64,000 bases of DNA from an uncultured Gammaproteobacteria bacterium (GCA_964596735.1 CAZQVF010000005.1:13328-77327); one strand, 5' to 3'. Positions 3,511 to 58,826 are shown, counted from the stretch's first letter. Numbers and translations are program-made. Notes: generated by a model not told the origin, from the letters alone.

Positions 3511-3582
3511 GGCCAGGTAGCCAAGTAGTAAGGCAGGTGTCTGCAAAACACCTATACACGGGTGCAATTCCCGTCCTGGCCT
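3511..3582 (+). tRNA. tRNA-Cys (GCA)
   Basis: Manual cloverleaf: acceptor ggccagg/cctggcc, anticodon stem ggtgt/acacc with loop ctGCAaa, T stem acggg/cccgt. The T-loop tgcaatt is slightly non-canonical. A T-run follows. Confidence 0.85.
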
Positions 3583-15777: not shown

Positions 15778-16329
15778 TTAAAGACCTAATTCCTTAGGAA
15801 TACTTTGCATTGCCCTTAAACTAATTTTTACAAACTCTTCAAGTGACAAATCTAGTTCTTCACAAGCGGCAATAGTTTCTCGATTAGCTCCTCGGGCAAA
15901 TCCCTTTTCTTTATACCTGTTTAAAACGTTTTCTGCACTTAAATTAATAATTTTCTTGTTTGGCATAACCAAGGTCGCCGCAACAATTAAACCAGTAATC
16001 GGGTCTGCACAAAAAAGGGCCTTGGTCATTTTATCTTCACGAGGCAAACCATGAATTTCATTATGAGCCTTAACAGCCGTAATGACTTCTGAATCAATTC
16101 CATGTTGCTGGAGCATTTCCGCCCCTAGCAAACTATGTTTTTCTGGAGTATCTTTGGTTTCTTCATAATCAATATCATGTAAAAGTCCGGTTAAAGCCCA
16201 CTTTTCAATGTTTTCATTGAAATATTTTGCTAATTCCTTCATTACTGCTTCTACGGCCAAGCAGTGCTTAACCAGATTTCTATTTTGAATCTTTTCCTCA
16301 ACTAATTTTAGAGCCTCTTCTCTAGTCAT
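15778..16329 (-). CDS. HD/HDIG-domain metal-dependent phosphohydrolase
   Basis: Contains an H...HD signature (HCLAVEAVM..., LLHDIDYE). Confidence 0.75.
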   Translation of the reverse strand: MTREEALKLVEEKIQNRNLVKHCLAVEAVMKELAKYFNENIEKWALTGLLHDIDYEETKDTPEKHSLLGAEMLQQHGIDSEVITAVKAHNEIHGLPREDKMTKALFCADPITGLIVAATLVMPNKKIINLSAENVLNRYKEKGFARGANRETIAACEELDLSLEEFVKISLRAMQSIPKELGL

Positions 16330-16991
16330 TAAAGCAATTTAAAGTTATTAATCACTAAATGGAATTTATACCCCAGATAATTAGCGGCTTGACGGCAATA
16401 AGTCATCCTTTCTGTAAAAATTTCAAAAAATTCTATAACTGGAACAAACTTTTGGTCAATCTTTAAGGTAAGAATAATCTGTTTTTTAGATCTATTAATA
16501 CTTAGATCTGATTTGGTTACTGCATAATTCACTCGATCATGAATATCGAGCTTAATTTTTTCTAAAGATTTAACTGTTACTCGGGAACGATGAACATCTG
16601 ACTTGTCAGCCAATACAACAATGGCAGATATAGGCTCTGTTAATTTCATTGTATTTTTATCATGATTAGAGATTGCCTGCATTATCCAAACAAGTTCTTT
16701 GGAGGTAAAATCATTTTTAAAAATCTGATGGAATAAAAGGGAACCCCAATAATGATGTTGTGAACGACCTAGAAAATTACCCATATCATGACAAAAGCCA
16801 GCAATAGCTGCCAAGTCTTGACCCCTTTCACTTAGATTAATTTGTTTGGCTAAATTTTTAGCCTCACGCGCAACTAATTTAGCATGGCGCAAGCCATGTT
16901 CAGTATAATCTAATGCCTTAATAGTAATTTCAGACTGATTAATAAACTCCAAAATTTTTGGATGTTTTTTTATGTCTTGAAATGTTAACAT
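16329..16991 (-). CDS. HD-domain phosphohydrolase
   Basis: GLRHAKLVAREA...AGFCHDMGN (H...HD). Confidence 0.7.
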   Translation of the reverse strand: MLTFQDIKKHPKILEFINQSEITIKALDYTEHGLRHAKLVAREAKNLAKQINLSERGQDLAAIAGFCHDMGNFLGRSQHHYWGSLLFHQIFKNDFTSKELVWIMQAISNHDKNTMKLTEPISAIVVLADKSDVHRSRVTVKSLEKIKLDIHDRVNYAVTKSDLSINRSKKQIILTLKIDQKFVPVIEFFEIFTERMTYCRQAANYLGYKFHLVINNFKLL

Positions 16992-16997
16992 ACAATT

Positions 16998-17231
16998 TTA
17001 TTTAATATTTAATTTTTCCTTAAACTTTGGGACATCAAATCCCATAATCATTTCCCCGTCGATTTCTGTTACGGGTACGGCCATCTGCCCTGTTTTTTTA
17101 ATAAAATCATCAACCAGATCCTGATGTTGACTAAGATCAACCTCTTCAAACTCGATTTTATTCTCATTTAAAAAATCTTTGACATGGTGGCAATAAAGAC
17201 ATGATGGTGATGTATAAACAATTATTTTCAT
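16998..17231 (-). CDS. Glutaredoxin-like protein (NrdH/YruB-like)
   Basis: IIVYTSPSCLYCHHVKDFL (CxxC) and VPVTEIDGEMIMGFD. Confidence 0.85.
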   Translation of the reverse strand: MKIIVYTSPSCLYCHHVKDFLNENKIEFEEVDLSQHQDLVDDFIKKTGQMAVPVTEIDGEMIMGFDVPKFKEKLNIK

Positions 17232-17265
17232 ATATTCTTAGTTAATTGGTTATTTACTGTTAGTA

Positions 17266-17420
17266 TAAGAACCTGCTTCGCAGAACCTTGAAATTAAATT
17301 CTATTATATATAAATTAAGGTAATTTAATTATAAGAACCTGCTTCGCAGAACCTACCTGCCGGCAGGCAGGCCTTGAAATTAAATTCTATTGTATAAATA
17401 ATAATGTATTTTAATTATAA
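17266..17420 (+). promoter_or_regulatory. Tandem pair of the dispersed promoter-like repeat (copies 4a at 17266-17332 and 4b at 17333-17420)
   Basis: Two head-to-tail copies with TTGAAA at 17288-17293 and 17374-17379. Copy 4b carries a 20-nt insertion containing the perfect palindrome cctgccggcagg (17356-17367). Both point toward the 3' end of the minus-strand RT gene. Confidence 0.6.
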
Positions 17421-17464
17421 AGATTAGAAAAAGCTCGTCAAGTTATCTTATTTTGTAATAATAT

Positions 17465-18442
17465 TTATTCTACTAAACCTACTTTCTTTCTAAATTTATA
17501 CGTATTTCCGTGAATCAATAGTCCTTGATAAGAAATAACTGTCTGTCGTTTTGGATAATTCTTTAATCTTCTAATTATCTTTCGCTTTGTGGTTGTTCGA
17601 ATCTGTCGATAGCATGGAAAATGTATCCAGCCCAAAAAATCTAAACCCGAAGCATAAGTTCTAATACAAACCTTGTGTTGATGAAGTGTCAATTTAAGTT
17701 CTTTTTGTAAAAATTCAGTGATTCTTAACAATAAACCATTGAGATACTCTTTATTGTCCGATAAAATAACGAAATCGTCGCCATATCTAATATAATATTT
17801 CACTCGCAATTCCTGTTTTATATACATATCAAATTCGTGCATATAAACATTAACGAAAAGTTGGGAAGTGAGGTTGCCAAGGGGCAGACCTATCCCCAAA
17901 CGGCTGGAATAAAAACTAAAAACTACCCTTTCAATCAACCGAATAATTTGAGAATCGTTAATGTGTCTCTTTAATATTTTAATAAGGATTTGCTGATCAA
18001 TGTTAGCAAAAAATTTCTGAATATCGCATTTTAGAATATAACAAGTTTGAGAATTATTTTTTGATACCTTCTGGGCAAAATATCTGAATCTGTTCAAAGC
18101 GCGATGCACTCCCTTGTTTTCTCTACACGAATATACATCATAAATAAACTTTCTATCAAAATAAGGACACAGCTCCTTATAAATGAGATGATGTAATAAC
18201 CGATCACGCACCGTAGCTTTGTGAATATTTCTCGGCTTGGGGTCAGAAATATTAAAAGCCGAATATGGTCCGTGAATATAAGTAAAATTAACCAGAGACT
18301 TATAAAGATCTATTAAATTATCGGCCAGCTTTATTTGAAAAATCATCACATCTTTTTTATGTCTTTTACCACACAAAAAACGCTCCCAAGTCGCTAAGAG
18401 ATTTTCTATCTTAATAATATCAATATATTTAACTTTAAACAT
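17465..18442 (-). CDS. DGR-type reverse transcriptase
   Basis: RT motifs: PRNIHKATVRDRLLHH, ILKCDIQKFFANID, IGLPLGNLTSQLFVNVYM (DGR-typical LGxxxSQ), IRYGDDFVIL (YxDD) and LDFLGW. Start taken at MFKVKYIDI (18442). The ORF could extend to 18511. Confidence 0.9.
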   Translation of the reverse strand: MFKVKYIDIIKIENLLATWERFLCGKRHKKDVMIFQIKLADNLIDLYKSLVNFTYIHGPYSAFNISDPKPRNIHKATVRDRLLHHLIYKELCPYFDRKFIYDVYSCRENKGVHRALNRFRYFAQKVSKNNSQTCYILKCDIQKFFANIDQQILIKILKRHINDSQIIRLIERVVFSFYSSRLGIGLPLGNLTSQLFVNVYMHEFDMYIKQELRVKYYIRYGDDFVILSDNKEYLNGLLLRITEFLQKELKLTLHQHKVCIRTYASGLDFLGWIHFPCYRQIRTTTKRKIIRRLKNYPKRQTVISYQGLLIHGNTYKFRKKVGLVE

Positions 18443-18820
18443 ATGACTACAATATCTGCGCGAGTACCATTGGTGCTTGTTAGAACAAAAAGGGCTTATC
18501 AAATTTGGCACAAAAATTTAGTCAATCTTAATCGACTTGATCGCTATACTATTGGTGCTAAAATCGATGAATATTTTCTATCTTTATTGGAATTAATTTT
18601 TAAGGCCTGTTTTGCTTACGATAAATTTGAAAAACTCTCAATGGTATCACAAGCGATTGGTAAAAACGATTTATTAAAATTCTTTTTACAGATTGGTTGG
18701 GAACAAAAAACCATTAACCATAAAAATTATGGTCTTCTAATACTTTTACTTGATGAAGTTGGTCGAATGCTGGGTGGCTGGAAAAAAAATATACAAGAAA
18801 AAACTCCCGCTAGTAAGTAG
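18443..18820 (+). CDS. avd: Avd-like four-helix-bundle accessory protein, on the strand opposite to RT/TR/VR
   Basis: 125-aa helical protein: RAYQIWHKNLVNLNRLDRYTIGAKIDEYFLSLLELIF...LLKFFLQIGWEQK...LLDEVGRMLGGWKK. It resembles the four-helix-bundle family that includes DGR Avd. Its ATG abuts the RT start (cat|atg at 18440-18445). Confidence 0.75.
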   Translation: MTTISARVPLVLVRTKRAYQIWHKNLVNLNRLDRYTIGAKIDEYFLSLLELIFKACFAYDKFEKLSMVSQAIGKNDLLKFFLQIGWEQKTINHKNYGLLILLLDEVGRMLGGWKKNIQEKTPASK

Positions 18821-18840
18821 CAGGAGAAAAAATTAAATAA

Positions 18841-18960
18841 GTCACAGAAGCAGAGCAGGCAGTCGTTATCATCCCAAGCGTTCTCAAAGTTGCCGAGGTT
18901 GAAATTAAAGTCATCATCCGAGTTGCGGTTGACATTCGGCACGCGGTAGTTGCCGTCAGA
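18841..18960 (-). repeat. DGR template repeat (TR)
   Basis: 120 bp homologous to 19299-19418. Minus-sense reading is rich in AAY codons: SDGNYRVPNVNRNSDDDFNFNLGNFENAWDDNDCLLCFCD. Contains 28 adenines in the minus sense. Confidence 0.9.
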
Positions 18961-19200
18961 CAATGTACAGCCCGCCACCTTTTTCACTAAGGGTAACGCC
19001 AGTCGCCCTCTGTATTTTATTCTGAGCCAAAATGCTCAATAGCACGCTGCACCGACTGATTTAATTTTTTCATAAAAGGTTGCACTCATTTACTAAGCAT
19101 GCCCAGTAAATTCCTGGCAAACTCCCTTTACGAGAATTCGATGATATAAAGCCATGGCCACATATCCAATCTATTATCCAAAAATATTATACAGAAAAAA

Positions 19201-19238
19201 TACATAAAAGAAAAGGGTCCTTACATTGGTAAGAACCC
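19201..19238 (-). terminator. Rho-independent terminator of the DGR target gene
   Basis: Minus-strand reading: gggttcttac-caat-gtaaggaccc followed by ttttctttt. It lies between VR and TR. Confidence 0.6.
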
Positions 19239-19289
19239 AAAGGGTCAAAAAATCCAAAGAACAGGACTAAGAAACCAAGTGCCTAAGCA

Positions 19290-19949
19290 CTAATCGCAGT
19301 CGCAGAAGCAGAGCAGGCAGTCGCTATCATCCCAAGCGTCCTCAAAGGGGCCGAGGAAGAAAATAAAGTCACCAACCGAGTAGCGGTCGACAGACGGCAC
19401 GCGGTAGCTGCCGTCAGAATCGATCCAGAGAGCCTCTTTCTCATCAAACGAGACAGACCAACGGCTCTTTGGCAACTTGTTTTTGGCAAGTTCATAGACC
19501 AGTGAAGCGCCTTGAGCGCCGGCTAAAACAGCTTTCTGAGAATACAGGAAATTTAAACAGTCTTCCGAAGTCACAGTTTCTGTGATATTAAAAACCTTTA
19601 CCTTGAACTTTCTGCCAGGCACGAGCTTTGTTGTCGCTTTGTTAAAGTGCTTATCAGTGATGTCGGAATTGTAGTAATTAAATTCCGAGCCATGCGCTGC
19701 TGCAAAGTCAGTCAAGCGCGTAGCATGGTCGTAACCCTTAGGCACAACAATGTTAAACGCATTGGCCAATTTGAAGCGCGGGTCAGGCATAAACGGTGAA
19801 AGAGCTTGCTGACGTTGTTTCTGTGTCAGATTTAAAAAACATTCATATTCTGGCAAACTCATTTGCCCTTTCTTGATCTTCTGATTGCAATCCATATGCA
19901 GACCAGCCAATTTGGCCGCTTCTGCGCCGATAGATGTCTTATCCATCAT
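19290..19949 (-). CDS. DGR variable (target) protein, unknown family, C-terminal VR
   Basis: ORF ends ...WIDSDGSYRVPSVDRYSVGDFIFFLGPFEDAWDDSDCLLCFCDCD*, with the VR covering the last 40 full codons before CD*. Start at ATG 19949 is preceded by AAGGAG; the ORF track start at 19997 is the alternative. No N-terminal hydrophobic signal is seen. Confidence 0.85.
   Translation of the reverse strand: MMDKTSIGAEAAKLAGLHMDCNQKIKKGQMSLPEYECFLNLTQKQRQQALSPFMPDPRFKLANAFNIVVPKGYDHATRLTDFAAAHGSEFNYYNSDITDKHFNKATTKLVPGRKFKVKVFNITETVTSEDCLNFLYSQKAVLAGAQGASLVYELAKNKLPKSRWSVSFDEKEALWIDSDGSYRVPSVDRYSVGDFIFFLGPFEDAWDDSDCLLCFCDCD
19299..19418 (-). repeat. DGR variable repeat (VR)
   Basis: Base-by-base alignment to the TR gives 15 mismatches. 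14 fall at TR adenines (minus sense) and 1 is a T>C in the invariant GC-rich 3' end. Confidence 0.9.
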
Positions 19950-20015
19950 TTTCTCCTTTGATACCAAGAGTTTAATAATTGACCCCATGCCAATCATTTT
20001 CTCAGTATTGATAAT

Positions 20016-20044
20016 ATTATGTCATATTTTAGCCTTTTTGTCAA
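20016..20044 (-). promoter_or_regulatory. Candidate sigma70-type promoter of the DGR target gene
   Basis: Minus-strand reading: TTGACA (20044-20039), 17 nt, CATAAT (20021-20016). It sits about 65 nt upstream of the ATG. Confidence 0.5.
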
Positions 20045-20092
20045 CACTCCTATTCCAAAAGACTTAAAATTTATATTAATCTAAAATAAAAA

Positions 20093-20160
20093 CACCGCCG
20101 AGGAGAATCGAACTCCTGAGACGGATTTGCCTTTAGCGGAAAACCTGGCGTCCTACAATG
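20093..20160 (-). pseudogene. Decayed tRNA-Glu-like pseudogene (3' two-thirds)
   Basis: Minus-strand reading: aggac-g-ccagg-ttttc... (D-stem 3' half, anticodon-stem 5' half, and the start of a UUC-type loop, as in the intact tRNA-Glu). Disrupted sequence follows. An intact T-arm aggag-ttcgatt-ctcct and acceptor 3' strand cggcggt-g complete it. No matching 5' acceptor strand was found. Confidence 0.6.
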
Positions 20161-20176
20161 CTTAATAAATTAAAAT

Positions 20177-20198
20177 GGCCCCGAGGAGAATTGAGTGA
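20177..20198 (-). pseudogene. Second short tRNA 3'-end remnant directly after the LAGLIDADG-like ORF
   Basis: Minus-strand reading: cactcAATTCTCCTCGGggcca. It shares the 11-nt core ATTCTCCTCGG with the remnant at 20098-20108. Confidence 0.45.
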
Positions 20199-20201
20199 AA
20201 A

Positions 20202-20891
20202 TTATTTTAATCCACTTTGTAATTTTAACGCGTCAATCCATCCTTTAATTCGAAAAGCTATCTTACGACCATGTACACGTAAATCAAGTGTGCCATATGG
20301 CAAAGAATTGATTGGACGTTTTCTGTTGCTCGCTTTGCTTATTTGTTTAAAAATGCGAAAACGACTTTTAGGAATATTAGTTACTCTAGCCCAAAAATTA
20401 ATGGCAGATTGCTCGCTAATATTAGCATGTATTCTAACACATACTTTTAATTTCTCTTCAGGGACTTTAATAATTTCTCGTAAAAAGCGAAGAAACAACG
20501 CAATCATATAAGGATCAGCATTAACAAAATCAACTACATACCCTTTGTTTTTTTGAGCCTCAATTTTATATCCCTCTGCCCAATAAAGAGCATTTGCAAC
20601 TAATAATAACTCATATTTTGACAACGAATGAATTTCATTAAAAGTCTCCTTCTTTATTCTCTGATTTTCAATCCAAATAGCACGTGTCCGTTGCCGATTG
20701 TTTTCAAATAACCCATGTTCTCGAGCAATTCTCGTTTTTTTTTCTAAAAGCTTTTTTGCTGACTTTGTTAGTTTTAAGTCTCTAAACCAAACGCTAAGCG
20801 AGCCCTTGGAAACACTTAAAGTACGAGCTATTTCATTGTAACTTTTACCCTTTAACCGCAACCTGAGCGCTTTTTGATATTGTGGATGCAT
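20202..20891 (-). CDS. LAGLIDADG-like homing endonuclease with N-terminal HTH
   Basis: HTH GKSYNEIARTLSVSKGSLSVWFRDL, then LLLVANALYWAEGYK ... VDFVNADPYMIALFLRFLRE ... YGTLDLRV. Start moved to ATG 20891 because the longer ORF overlaps tRNA-Glu. Confidence 0.65.
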   Translation of the reverse strand: MHPQYQKALRLRLKGKSYNEIARTLSVSKGSLSVWFRDLKLTKSAKKLLEKKTRIAREHGLFENNRQRTRAIWIENQRIKKETFNEIHSLSKYELLLVANALYWAEGYKIEAQKNKGYVVDFVNADPYMIALFLRFLREIIKVPEEKLKVCVRIHANISEQSAINFWARVTNIPKSRFRIFKQISKASNRKRPINSLPYGTLDLRVHGRKIAFRIKGWIDALKLQSGLK

Positions 20892-20909
20892 AATAATTAA
20901 ATATATAAG

Positions 20910-20981
20910 TAGCGCCAAGGGGAATCGAACCCCTGTTACATGGTTGAAAACCATGTGTCCTGACCACTAGACGATGGCGCC
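20910..20981 (-). tRNA. tRNA-Glu (UUC)
   Basis: Manual cloverleaf: acceptor ggcgcca/tggcgct, D stem gtct/ggac, anticodon stem catgg/ccatg with loop ttTTCaa, T arm agggg-ttcgatt-cccct. Confidence 0.88.
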
Positions 20982-21053
20982 ATTATTATTTAGCGCAATC
21001 TTAGCAAAATTAAACGAATTTGTCAAAGAATTAATTTATGTTAAAATAATCTT

Positions 21054-22112
21054 ATGCTTATCTTAGGTATTGAAACATCTTGTGATGAAACAGCGGCGGC
21101 TGTTTTAGAATATAAGCCCTTAAAAAAAGAAGGTCAGTTTAAAGTTATTTCCAATGTTATTTTTTCACAAATCTCAATTCATCGTCAATACGGAGGTATT
21201 ATTCCTGAGGTAGCCGCCAGGGCTCATATTGAAAATATTTTACCAGTGATTAAAAAATCTCTTAAAAATATAGATTATAGAAAAATCGATTTAATTGCTG
21301 TTACTCAAGGGCCGGGGCTAATCACATCGTTATTAGTTGGTTTAGAAACTGCTAAATCTTTATCCTATTCTTGGAAAAAACCATTAATGGGAATTAATCA
21401 TTTACAAGGTCATTTGGCGGCTAATTTTATTGAACATGAAACAAAGAATGTTTTTCCGGCAATTAGCTTAATTGTCTCTGGTGGACATACTGAACTTGGC
21501 TTAATGAGAAAGTCTGGTCATTATAAAAAAATTGGACAAACTAGGGATGATGCCGCTGGAGAATGTTTTGATAAAATCGCTAAATTATTAAAAATCGGCT
21601 ATCCTGGAGGTCCAGTTATCTCTAAAATGGCTGAAAAAATAAACAACAAATCAAATAATATCTGCTTTCCTCGCCCCATGATCAAAACAAATGATTTTGA
21701 TTTTAGTTTCTCGGGACTAAAAACAGCTGTACTTTATTTTGTTAAAAAGAATAGAAATAAACTAGAAAAGAAAAAATTTATTCAGAACATTTGTGCTGAA
21801 TCTCAACAAGCAATTATTGACGTTTTAATTCATAAAACAATTAAAGCAAGTAAAAAATATAAAGCCAAAGCTATTTTTCTAAGTGGTGGAGTGGCCGCCA
21901 ACCAAGAACTAAGAGAACAATTGAAGCTCCATGTTTGTAGATTGCCAAATAGTGTAAAATTCTTTGTTCCATCAAGAAATCTTTGCACTGATAATGCGGT
22001 AATGATTGCTGCAGCCGCCGCCCTCAAATTCAAAAACTTAATACCAATTCAAAGGAAGAAATTAAAAAATAATTGGCAAAAAATAAAAGTAGATCCTAAC
22101 TTAGAAACATGA
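21054..22112 (+). CDS. tsaD: tRNA N6-adenosine threonylcarbamoyltransferase
   Basis: ILGIETSCDETAAAV, NHLQGHL and SGGHTEL are Kae1/TsaD motifs. Confidence 0.94.
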   Translation: MLILGIETSCDETAAAVLEYKPLKKEGQFKVISNVIFSQISIHRQYGGIIPEVAARAHIENILPVIKKSLKNIDYRKIDLIAVTQGPGLITSLLVGLETAKSLSYSWKKPLMGINHLQGHLAANFIEHETKNVFPAISLIVSGGHTELGLMRKSGHYKKIGQTRDDAAGECFDKIAKLLKIGYPGGPVISKMAEKINNKSNNICFPRPMIKTNDFDFSFSGLKTAVLYFVKKNRNKLEKKKFIQNICAESQQAIIDVLIHKTIKASKKYKAKAIFLSGGVAANQELREQLKLHVCRLPNSVKFFVPSRNLCTDNAVMIAAAAALKFKNLIPIQRKKLKNNWQKIKVDPNLET

Positions 22113-22534
22113 AAACAACTACCAAATCAGAAAAACAAACCCTTAATTTAGGTAAAAACTTTGTTTTAGAGCTTAAAGGAGGTGAAGTAATTGGTTTTAT
22201 TGGTGAATTAGGGGCCGGAAAGACTGTTTTTATCAAAGGACTGGCCCAGGGACTAAACATTAAAAACATAATTACCAGTCCTACTTTTGTTTTAATGAAA
22301 ATATATAAAGCAAAGGGGCCAATAAAAGATCTCTGTCATGTTGATGCCTATCGTTTAAAATCTGCTCAAGATCTAATTGACATTGGCATTAAAGACTATT
22401 TAAACAAAAAAGCCGCTGTTACGGTAATTGAATGGGCTGATCAAGTAAAAAATATTTTGCCAAAAAATAAAATTCTTGTTAAAATAAAAATTGGTAAAAA
22501 TCCGAACCAAAGAATTTTTGAAATTATTAAATAA
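22109..22534 (+). CDS. tsaE: tRNA threonylcarbamoyladenosine biosynthesis ATPase TsaE
   Basis: P-loop GELGAGKTVFIKGLAQGL, SPTFVLM and HVDAYRL. Confidence 0.9.
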   Translation: MKTTTKSEKQTLNLGKNFVLELKGGEVIGFIGELGAGKTVFIKGLAQGLNIKNIITSPTFVLMKIYKAKGPIKDLCHVDAYRLKSAQDLIDIGIKDYLNKKAAVTVIEWADQVKNILPKNKILVKIKIGKNPNQRIFEIIK

Positions 22535-58727: not shown

Positions 58728-58741
58728 AAAAATATTTAATA

Positions 58742-58815
58742 TCGGGCTGGCCGGCTCCGCCCCGGCGACCTCATCTCCCCCAGAGATGCGCGCTAACTAA
58801 CTGCGCCACAGCCCG
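58742..58815 (-). tRNA. tRNA-Pro (GGG) with non-canonical T-loop
   Basis: Manual cloverleaf, 74 nt: acceptor cgggctg/cagcccg, D stem gcgc/gcgc, anticodon stem catct/agatg with loop ctGGGgg, T stem gccgg/ccggc. The T-loop ggcggag lacks the TTC/A58 pattern. Confidence 0.65.
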
Positions 58816-58826
58816 ACATTCAAAAT

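Follow-up and report, generated by a model that had tools for sequence, protein, structure and literature searches.

The T4 tRNA gene cluster holds SegB, a free-standing GIY-YIG homing endonuclease whose recognition site includes the conserved TpsiC stem-loop motif and which drives the inheritance of neighbouring tRNA genes (PMC2330249). Mobile ORFs in fungal mitochondria (in atp6 of Allomyces macrogynus and in atp6, atp9, cox2 and nad3 of Glomus) bring in the 3' end of a foreign gene and leave the native remnant downstream (PMC3630166). In candidate-phyla-radiation (CPR) bacteria, rRNA insertions carry LAGLIDADG endonucleases and tRNA genes carry group I introns (PMC11270868; PMC13011429), and a survey of tRNA introns in Patescibacteria recorded few nuclease genes and made no mention of free-standing, tRNA-adjacent ones (PMC13011429). 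The locus analysed here lies within a 64,000-nucleotide stretch of DNA (the window) and, like that of SegB, has a free-standing nuclease-like gene among tRNA genes, relatives in which the region lacks this gene, and tRNAs that appear to travel along with it. Its layout is that of the fungal mobile ORFs, namely a functional gene (or part of one) of foreign type, an ORF (LAGLIDADG or GIY-YIG in the fungi) and the displaced native 3' end; as in the fungi, the native end hardly differs from the closest relative's gene and the inserted copy is diverged.

Layout of the locus and its tRNA-Glu remnants

All elements named in the preliminary description (an intact tRNA-Glu, a LAGLIDADG-like ORF and two decayed tRNA-Glu-like pieces) were found where it had placed them or within a few bases of those positions (Table 1). 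The intact gene was called at 20909-20981 on the minus strand by ARAGORN and at 20910-20981 by the Rfam tRNA model (68.6 bits), and these calls, together with the reading of the ORF, agreed with the tRNA-Glu(UUC), the 18-nt spacer and the ORF as first described. The acceptor stem of this tRNA is GGCGCCA/TGGCGCT, and CCA is not encoded. The ORF begins at the consensus start of its family, and its stop codon is separated from remnant 1 by 7 nt. No terminator was found in the 18 nt that separate tRNA and ORF, and the promoter-like site 5' of the tRNA probably drives both genes. Because two independent assemblies from other samples (L081 and L082) carry the identical arrangement, an assembly chimera or artefact was ruled out.

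Table 1. Features of the tRNA-Glu locus and their positions in the window.
Feature	Position	Strand	Remarks
Promoter-like site TTGACA-17-TAAGAT (sigma-70-like)	20998..21026	-	10/12 consensus matches; 5' of intact tRNA-Glu
tsaD promoter-like site, divergent	21020-21047	+	Overlaps the minus-strand site at 20998..21026
Intact tRNA-Glu(UUC)	20910..20981	-	ARAGORN, Rfam tRNA
tRNA-ORF spacer, 18 nt	20892..20909	-	
ORF, 229 aa	20202..20891	-	Starts MHPQYQ
Remnant 1, 19 nt, TCAATTCTCCTCGGGGCCA	20176..20194	-	Last 19 nt of a tRNA-Glu
Inter-remnant spacer, AT-rich, 20 nt, TTTTAATTTATTAAGCATTG	20156..20175	-	
Remnant 2, 63 nt	20093..20155	-	tRNA-Glu HMM; identity to L083/L096/L102
DGR block	about 17481-20092		Starts directly after the discriminator base of the resident tRNA

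The shorter remnant (remnant 1) had been recognised as a tRNA-Glu 3' end, which held, and its limits were corrected from 20198-20177 to 20194-20176. It comprises the T-loop, the 3' strand of the T-stem, the acceptor 3' strand CGGGGCC and the discriminator A. Against a tRNA-Glu HMM built from 29 related genes it aligned to positions 54-72 with an E-value that is not significant alone (nhmmer, E = 16), and 17 of its 19 bases match the tRNA-Glu 3' end of the relatives L086 and L098. Its allele type, GGCCCCG, is that of the same two relatives and is the third allele at this locus; remnant 1 is probably a stub from an earlier host of the tRNA-ORF cassette, brought in with it.

The tRNA-Glu origin of the longer remnant (remnant 2) likewise stood, with an extent of 20155-20093 instead of 20160-20093: it matched positions 20-69 of the HMM at E = 0.004 (E = 6.5e-4 in a smaller set). 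The resident tRNA-Glu of relatives whose TsaD is 88-91% identical to that of the window is GCCGCCGTCGTCTAGTGGTTAGGACGCCAGGTTTTCATCCTGGTAACAGGAGTTCGATTCTCCTCGGCGGTGCCA, type GCCGCCG, and two stretches of remnant 2, TAGGACGCCAGGTTTTC (17 nt) and CAGGAGTTCGATTCTCCTCGGCGGTG (26 nt), agree with it base for base. Remnant 2 lacks tRNA positions 1-19, and positions about 37-47, ATCCTGGTAA (10 nt), which form the 3' half of the anticodon stem, are exchanged for 20 unrelated nucleotides (20119-20138), a change that may reflect later decay. Outside these gaps it is identical to the relatives' resident gene up to discriminator G73, with the encoded CCA lost. From its identity to the resident genes, the missing positions 1-19 and the scrambled half-stem taken together, we read remnant 2 as the dead orthologue of the relatives' resident tRNA-Glu.

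Neither remnant is a working tRNA. ARAGORN called neither, the covariance-model check that had been proposed gave no Rfam tRNA match at E<=10, the 5' acceptor strand is absent from both (and the 5' half of the D-arm from remnant 2), and the region folded no better than its shuffles (z = -0.10). The 11-nt direct repeat ATTCTCCTCGG lies at 20098-20108 and 20181-20191, exactly as first placed, and is the T-arm/acceptor stretch common to two tRNA-Glu 3' ends; a third copy of the stub sequence, marking a distal island end, was not found within the window. The spacer between the remnants is the right end of the inserted DNA and abuts the resident tRNA at about position 19/20 of that gene.

The tsaD/tRNA-Glu/grx interval in related genomes

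Relatives' loci were found through TsaD homologues and their contigs and, in one metagenome scan, through the body of the resident-type tRNA-Glu. The comparison of the grx-to-tsaD interval that the preliminary description had called for yielded empty sites throughout the closer relatives, the ORF being absent from 13/13 loci whose TsaD is 75-91% identical to the window's. In L096 and L102 (TsaD 91 and 90% identical, respectively; neighbouring HD protein 95%) the order is grx(-), about 125 nt, tRNA-Glu(-), 67 nt and tsaD(+), the whole measuring ~270 nt, and the grx-tsaD interval holds neither ORF nor DGR. Four loci at 88% TsaD identity (L083, L084, L097 and L101) and one at 82% (L089) have the same tRNA-Glu and an unrelated 537-aa ORF before tsaD, and those at 75% (L086-L088, L098 and L099) have the short empty arrangement. 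The tsaD-linked loci that carry the ORF are distant (TsaD 39-55%); tsaD/tRNA-Glu/ORF synteny is seen in the distant L090, L094, L003, L024 and L027. The ORF is present or absent at this one position as a polymorphism among relatives.

Alignment of L102 with the window by blastn gave four blocks: the grx side matched 16232-17268, a short block matched 17416-17480, the tRNA matched 20093-20155 (remnant 2), and the tRNA with its 5' flank and tsaD matched 20913-22188. The flank from ~21000 to tsaD is orthologous to that of this empty-site relative, and with respect to the tsaD promoter the intact tRNA-Glu stands at the orthologous place. Its sequence, however, differs from the relatives' resident allele at 14/73 positions, mostly by paired changes in stems (acceptor, anticodon and T), whereas relatives spanning TsaD identities of 75-91% have identical anticodon and T arms among their tRNA-Glu genes. 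The GGCGC acceptor stem is common to the intact tRNA-Glu and to the ORF-linked tRNA-Glu genes of L027, L090, L092 and L094, which lie directly upstream of the closest homologues of the ORF. To judge by its sequence, the intact tRNA-Glu is a foreign (xenologous) allele despite its orthologous position; the host gene has given way to a donor-type allele, which is the adjacent marker looked for with free-standing homing endonucleases.

A transfer signature was also seen in the ORF itself, whose identity to the homologues of L094 and L090 is 64 and 61%, respectively, compared with 48 and 47% for TsaD in these two genome pairs only; because the ORF is closer to its homologues there than TsaD is, horizontal transfer is indicated. 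The preliminary suggestion that the locus marks an insertion hot spot was borne out: the tsaD/tRNA-Glu/grx interval is a recurrent landing pad that has independently received the nuclease cassette, the DGR (in the window) and the 537-aa ORF (in L083, L097 and L101). Because remnant 2 stands between them, the DGR and the ORF cassette are two separate insertions.

The 229-aa protein and its family

The ORF encodes a protein with an N-terminal helix-turn-helix (HTH, residues ~1-40), a helical linker and one C-terminal LAGLIDADG-like domain (~90-229) that contains the motif LLLVANALYWAEG (LYWAEG). W104, E106, G107, N124, W167, S185, R192, L197 and P198 are invariant in alignments of 41 and 117 sequences, and S188 and G200 in the 41-sequence alignment only. 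The AlphaFold models are confident (pLDDT 87.8 for the full length; pLDDT 88.4 and pTM 0.82 for the C-terminal domain). In the domain model a hydrophobic helix stops directly before the invariant Glu-Gly, like the motif helix of LAGLIDADG enzymes, and the protein has the terminal conserved acidic residue followed by Gly (E106-G107) that characterises such a helix. The end of this helix resembles the I-DmoI motif.

Of the LAGLIDADG-like character first ascribed to the ORF, the conserved motif was upheld and the family-level assignment was not: searches by sequence profile (Pfam with one and with 41 members, PHROGs, NCBIfam, and PDB by phmmer and profile hmmsearch) returned HTH matches and no LAGLIDADG match, those in Pfam being weak and limited to residues 2-40. 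Alignment of the family profile to an I-DmoI sequence (hhalign) gave no useful match, and Foldseek against the PDB gave no LAGLIDADG match, only insignificant hits to unrelated structures. In the structure comparison LAGLIDADG endonucleases were the best structural matches, with WhiA scoring as high as real endonucleases. We take the 229-aa protein as a probable free-standing homing endonuclease.

The family is large: its homologues number more than 210, are about 225 aa long and, for the 120 listed, show 44-67% identity. Those with names are all from Patescibacteria, and when one genome per species was scanned, at least 579 genomes had a relative. A tRNA gene lies within 250 nt of the family ORF in 65/80 loci; among the remaining ORFs of 150 aa or more in these tRNA-rich loci the share is 32%, and in the window it is 5/52 ORFs. 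In a neighbour-joining tree the clades follow tRNA type: the window ORF falls in a large tRNA-Glu(UUC) clade, and other clades are linked to Phe>ORF>Gly(GCC), ORF>Phe, Val(UAC) and mixed Pro/Arg/Gly groups. The linkage of tRNA and ORF is in this sense general, as had been anticipated, with clades specific for tRNA type. Within the Glu clade the distance from tRNA to ORF ranges from 2 to 160 nt. Some of the apparent exceptions hide intron-containing tRNAs, as in L034, where a group I intron was identified (Rfam, 78 bits). Four loci (L016, L022, L041 and L073) each hold a second paralogue beside a different tRNA, and the family copy in L001 has an in-frame stop; both observations speak for mobility.

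An association of cassette and remnant, which had been expected in other genomes, was found in one, L035, where 26 nt of the tRNA-Glu 3' end are perfectly duplicated on the two sides of the ORF; otherwise it was rare, since a scan of 80 loci for tRNA-derived repeats beyond the ORF gave clear remnants in L035 and the window only. Three further candidates were rejected, one because it is the 3' exon of a tRNA split by a group I intron (L034), one because it reflects cross-similarity of Phe and Gly tRNAs (L018) and one because it was too weak (L010, E = 13). A conserved partner gene was likewise considered and rejected, as the neighbouring large ORFs (537 aa in L083, 528 aa in L092) are unrelated. 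A tblastn comparison with a phage collection gave no match that would point to a phage vehicle, and a non-exhaustive literature search found no description of this HTH plus LAGLIDADG-like family.

Several features of the family were counted against homing. Visible pseudogenes are few and conservation is good (45-67% identity). In L092 and L094 the family gene and the ORF after it overlap by 4 nt, an arrangement that looks more like a settled than a selfish gene. Flanking remnants are rare, the tRNA-ORF distance varies, LAGLIDADG similarity is absent at the profile level, and WhiA scores equally in structure.

Proposed replacement of the resident tRNA-Glu, rival readings and known systems

We hold it moderately probable that a cassette of a foreign tRNA-Glu and a nuclease-like ORF replaced the resident tRNA-Glu, that is, that a free-standing homing endonuclease moved with a tRNA as cargo. 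The replacement of a tRNA gene had already been proposed in the preliminary description, and the empty sites, the orthology of remnant 2, the foreign allele, the tRNA linkage of the family and the higher identity of the ORF than of TsaD all support it. A cassette of about 840 bp (roughly 20156-21000) would have been copied in from another Patescibacteria genome, comprising the complete foreign tRNA-Glu(UUC), the HTH/LAGLIDADG-like gene and a 19-nt 3' stub of an earlier host's tRNA-Glu. On insertion the resident tRNA-Glu would have lost its first 19 nt and would then have decayed in the 3' half of its anticodon stem, with the foreign tRNA now supplying the function.

The driver would most likely be the ORF product, in the role of a free-standing homing endonuclease. 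The ORF may be transcribed together with the tRNA from the tRNA promoter, and the protein would dimerise, like single-motif LAGLIDADG enzymes, and cut ORF-less alleles in or beside the tRNA gene, whose arms are natural near-palindromes that would suit a homodimeric LAGLIDADG enzyme. The break would be repaired from an ORF-bearing allele, with the conserved tsaD/promoter flank as left homology arm, so that repair would copy the nuclease gene and co-convert the adjacent tRNA; the compensatory stem changes of the donor tRNA may confer resistance to cutting. At the right junction, at about tRNA position 19/20, no homology was seen. Textbook two-sided homing does not explain this junction because homology is lacking there, and the last step was probably an illegitimate joining and not a clean two-sided conversion.

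Four other readings were weighed against this replacement by a homing cassette. WhiA combines a C-terminal HTH with two degenerate LAGLIDADG domains that lack catalytic acidic residues, and the ORF could be a domesticated WhiA-like DNA-binding regulator at tRNA genes or promoters; the foreign tRNA and the ORF would then have come in by ordinary horizontal transfer and recombination, and the resident tRNA, made redundant, would have decayed. We judge this unlikely. The 229-aa protein has neither two degenerate domains nor a C-terminal HTH; in the models it has one domain and an N-terminal HTH, and it retains the Glu. WhiA has lost the acidic residue that closes the motif helix, whereas E106-G107 at that place is invariant in 117 sequences. 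A regulator also sits poorly with the nearest relatives, which do without the gene at the tsaD/tRNA-Glu/grx locus, with downstream partner ORFs that are mutually unrelated, and with an ORF identity between genomes that exceeds TsaD identity; the 26-nt duplication of L035 and the stubs of the window are footprints of insertion and not of regulation. The one reading in which nothing was gained, and which we consider improbable, is that two tandem tRNA-Glu genes with the ORF between or beside them were ancestral and that relatives lost one tRNA copy and the ORF by deletion while the window lineage kept the ORF and let one tRNA copy decay. Direct repeats such as tandem tRNAs delete easily, and the tsaD/tRNA-Glu/ORF synteny recurs in the distant L090, L094, L003, L024 and L027. 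Such losses, however, would have had to occur cleanly and independently at least four times (at TsaD identities of 91/90, 88, 82 and 75%), with the same resident allele remaining in one and the same place every time; the residents of these lineages differ far less from one another than the intact allele differs from the resident type, remnant 1 is of a third allele type, and the ORF is less diverged than TsaD against L094 and L090.

The other two readings concern the fragments themselves. That they are att-type repeats of a tRNA-targeting integrative element, for example one that brought the DGR, with the ORF as a passenger, is in our view highly improbable, even though integration at tRNA 3' ends is a classic pattern, the DGR block begins right after the discriminator base of the resident tRNA and both stubs have the 11-nt repeat in common. 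Neither the recombinase nor the identical att repeats of such an element were found: there is no integrase or recombinase between grx and tsaD, no further copy of the repeat occurs anywhere in the window, the stubs and the intact tRNA have different 3' ends where att cores would be identical, and remnant 2 separates the DGR from the ORF cassette. The objection that 20093-20160 might fold into a functional unusual tRNA, or be another structured RNA, could draw on the perfect T-arm and the intact acceptor 3' strand of 20093-20160. It failed, and we give it almost no weight, as the segment has neither a 5' acceptor strand nor the 5' half of a D-arm, its anticodon stem cannot pair, ARAGORN and Rfam were negative, its folding energy equals that of shuffles (z = -0.10), and a complete gene stands at the same position in relatives.

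If the protein is an active nuclease, replacement by a homing cassette would make this locus a clean natural case of a selfish element replacing an essential tRNA gene in a cellular bacterium, with both the state before (the empty-site relatives) and the state after (the dead stub) preserved. It would also define a large family (at least 579 species) with a C-terminal nuclease-like domain so far unannotated, would explain the clustering of family ORFs at tRNA genes in small CPR genomes, and would offer a mechanism by which tRNA alleles turn over horizontally and acceptor stems come to vary as observed. More tentatively, and with somewhat less than even confidence, we suggest a phylum-wide class of tRNA-gene-specific homing endonucleases, with clades devoted to individual tRNAs (Glu, Phe/Gly, Val, Pro/Arg and others), which carry whole tRNAs as cargo and turn tRNA genes over horizontally as nuclease-resistant alleles. 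This wider reading, if true, would amount to gene drive on the core translation apparatus of cellular organisms, and such enzymes might offer compact site-specific nucleases with tRNA-shaped targets.

Among enzymes of known structure, the best matches to the 229-aa protein are the single-motif I-CreI, I-CeuI and I-MsoI and the two-domain I-DmoI; its single domain implies a homodimer with a near-palindromic target, which tRNA stem-loop DNA would provide. The intron- and insertion-encoded elements of CPR bacteria belong to the same phylum and the same theme of selfish elements that target genes of the translation apparatus, but the window ORF is free-standing. With SegB, SegF and SegG the locus has in common a presence/absence polymorphism, a donor-allele marker and horizontal spread, the last as read from two genome pairs only. 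SegB is a phage GIY-YIG enzyme that has been tested by experiment, whereas the putative nuclease here is LAGLIDADG-like with an N-terminal HTH and is encoded on a Patescibacteria chromosome; unlike SegB, the window cassette left dead stubs of the resident tRNA. As in Allomyces atp6, the displaced native end matches the close relatives (remnant 2 with L083, L096 and L102 over 17 + 26 nt) and the upstream tRNA is diverged. The fungal elements, however, reside in mitochondrial protein-coding genes and usually bring the 3' end only, in frame, whereas in the window the target is a bacterial tRNA gene, the tRNA is foreign over its full length and there are two stubs in succession. The window case joins features of SegB-type elements and of fungal mobile ORFs on a bacterial chromosome, in a divergent LAGLIDADG-like family.

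Insertions around the resident tRNA-Glu gene

More than one insertion has entered the grx/tRNA-Glu/tsaD interval. The nearest relatives of the window lack the DGR block. In the window the block starts right behind G73, the discriminator base with which the dead resident tRNA-Glu (the orthologue of the relatives' intact gene) ends, and it has taken the place of the encoded CCA and ~26 nt of the tRNA-Glu 3' flank. The DGR block and the nuclease cassette, which comprises the family ORF (a probable LAGLIDADG-like homing endonuclease) and its foreign tRNA-Glu, are two separate insertions on opposite sides of one tRNA. A third such event in this interval, again independent, is a 537-aa ORF carried by relatives whose TsaD is 82-88% identical to that of the window; a Pfam search with this ORF gave no match, and it is not related to the 528-aa ORF located after the family gene in L092, a locus from another genome.

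Between the dead tRNA and the DGR target-like gene sits the best-scoring promoter-like site of the region, a short way downstream of the former and upstream of the latter. The window also contains 147 nt (17269-17415) that are extra relative to the near relative L102, and within them aatagaatttaatttcaagg...ttctgcgaagcaggttcttata occurs twice in direct orientation, one copy being split by the palindrome cctgcctgccggcaggtagg. A closely similar palindrome, GCCTGCCTGCCGGCAGGCAGGC, is found upstream of tRNA-Pro in locus L034 (3841-3875), and these palindrome-bearing repeats may represent a small palindromic repeat element.

Features of the window and of loci in other genomes
Feature	Location	Strand	Details
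DGR block	window 17481-20092
DGR reverse transcriptase gene	window 17465-18511
bAvd-like gene of DGR	window 18443-18820
DGR target-like gene	window 19290-19997
Promoter-like site	window 20016-20044	-	TTGACA-17-CATAAT; 11/12 matches, with TG extension
tRNA-Pro(GGG)	window 58741-58816	-	ARAGORN
Cys-rich ORF, 287 aa	window 58727-57864		13 nt downstream of tRNA-Pro(GGG); PF18780, E=4e-9
537-aa ORF	L083 2304-3917; also L097, L101, L089		between tRNA-Glu and tsaD
Group I intron + tRNA 3' exon	L034 2632-2935		Rfam RF00028, 78 bits (intron)
Direct repeat CGGAGTTCGATTCTCCGTGGGGCTGC	L035 2960-2985 and 3676-3701		26 nt, perfect
Second paralogue	L016 372-1052; L022 5720-6409; L041 2-547; L073 3-335
Overlap of family gene stop and next ORF start	L092 3675-3678; L094 2433-2436		4 nt

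Nuclease-type genes beside tRNA genes

Because the 287-aa ORF, whose PF18780 match is to a homing-endonuclease-associated repeat, adjoins tRNA-Pro, a nuclease-type neighbour lies beside two of the three tRNA genes in the window; none was found beside tRNA-Cys (3511-3582). The tRNA-Pro(GGG) gene scored below the Rfam tRNA gathering threshold, and a weak T-arm-like match (E=0.83) was detected at 57867-57849. Among the family loci, the count of those with a tRNA gene within 250 nt of the ORF (65 of 80) is too low, since ARAGORN overlooked the intron-containing tRNA of L034, in which a tRNA 3' exon with terminal CCA comes after the group I intron and immediately precedes a family member.

Flanking repeat, probable pseudogene and copy number in family loci

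The family ORF of locus L035 is bracketed by the two repeat copies, which correspond to the T-arm and acceptor 3' strand of tRNA-Glu; the arrangement has the look of a recent insertion in which the 3' end of the tRNA was duplicated. An in-frame TAG interrupts the copy in L001 (3001-3666), which is probably a pseudogene. The overlaps in L092 and L094 suggest translational coupling to unrelated downstream genes. Second paralogues in four loci adjoin another tRNA (Ile-UAU, Arg-UCU or Val-GAC), and therefore one genome can hold several family members.
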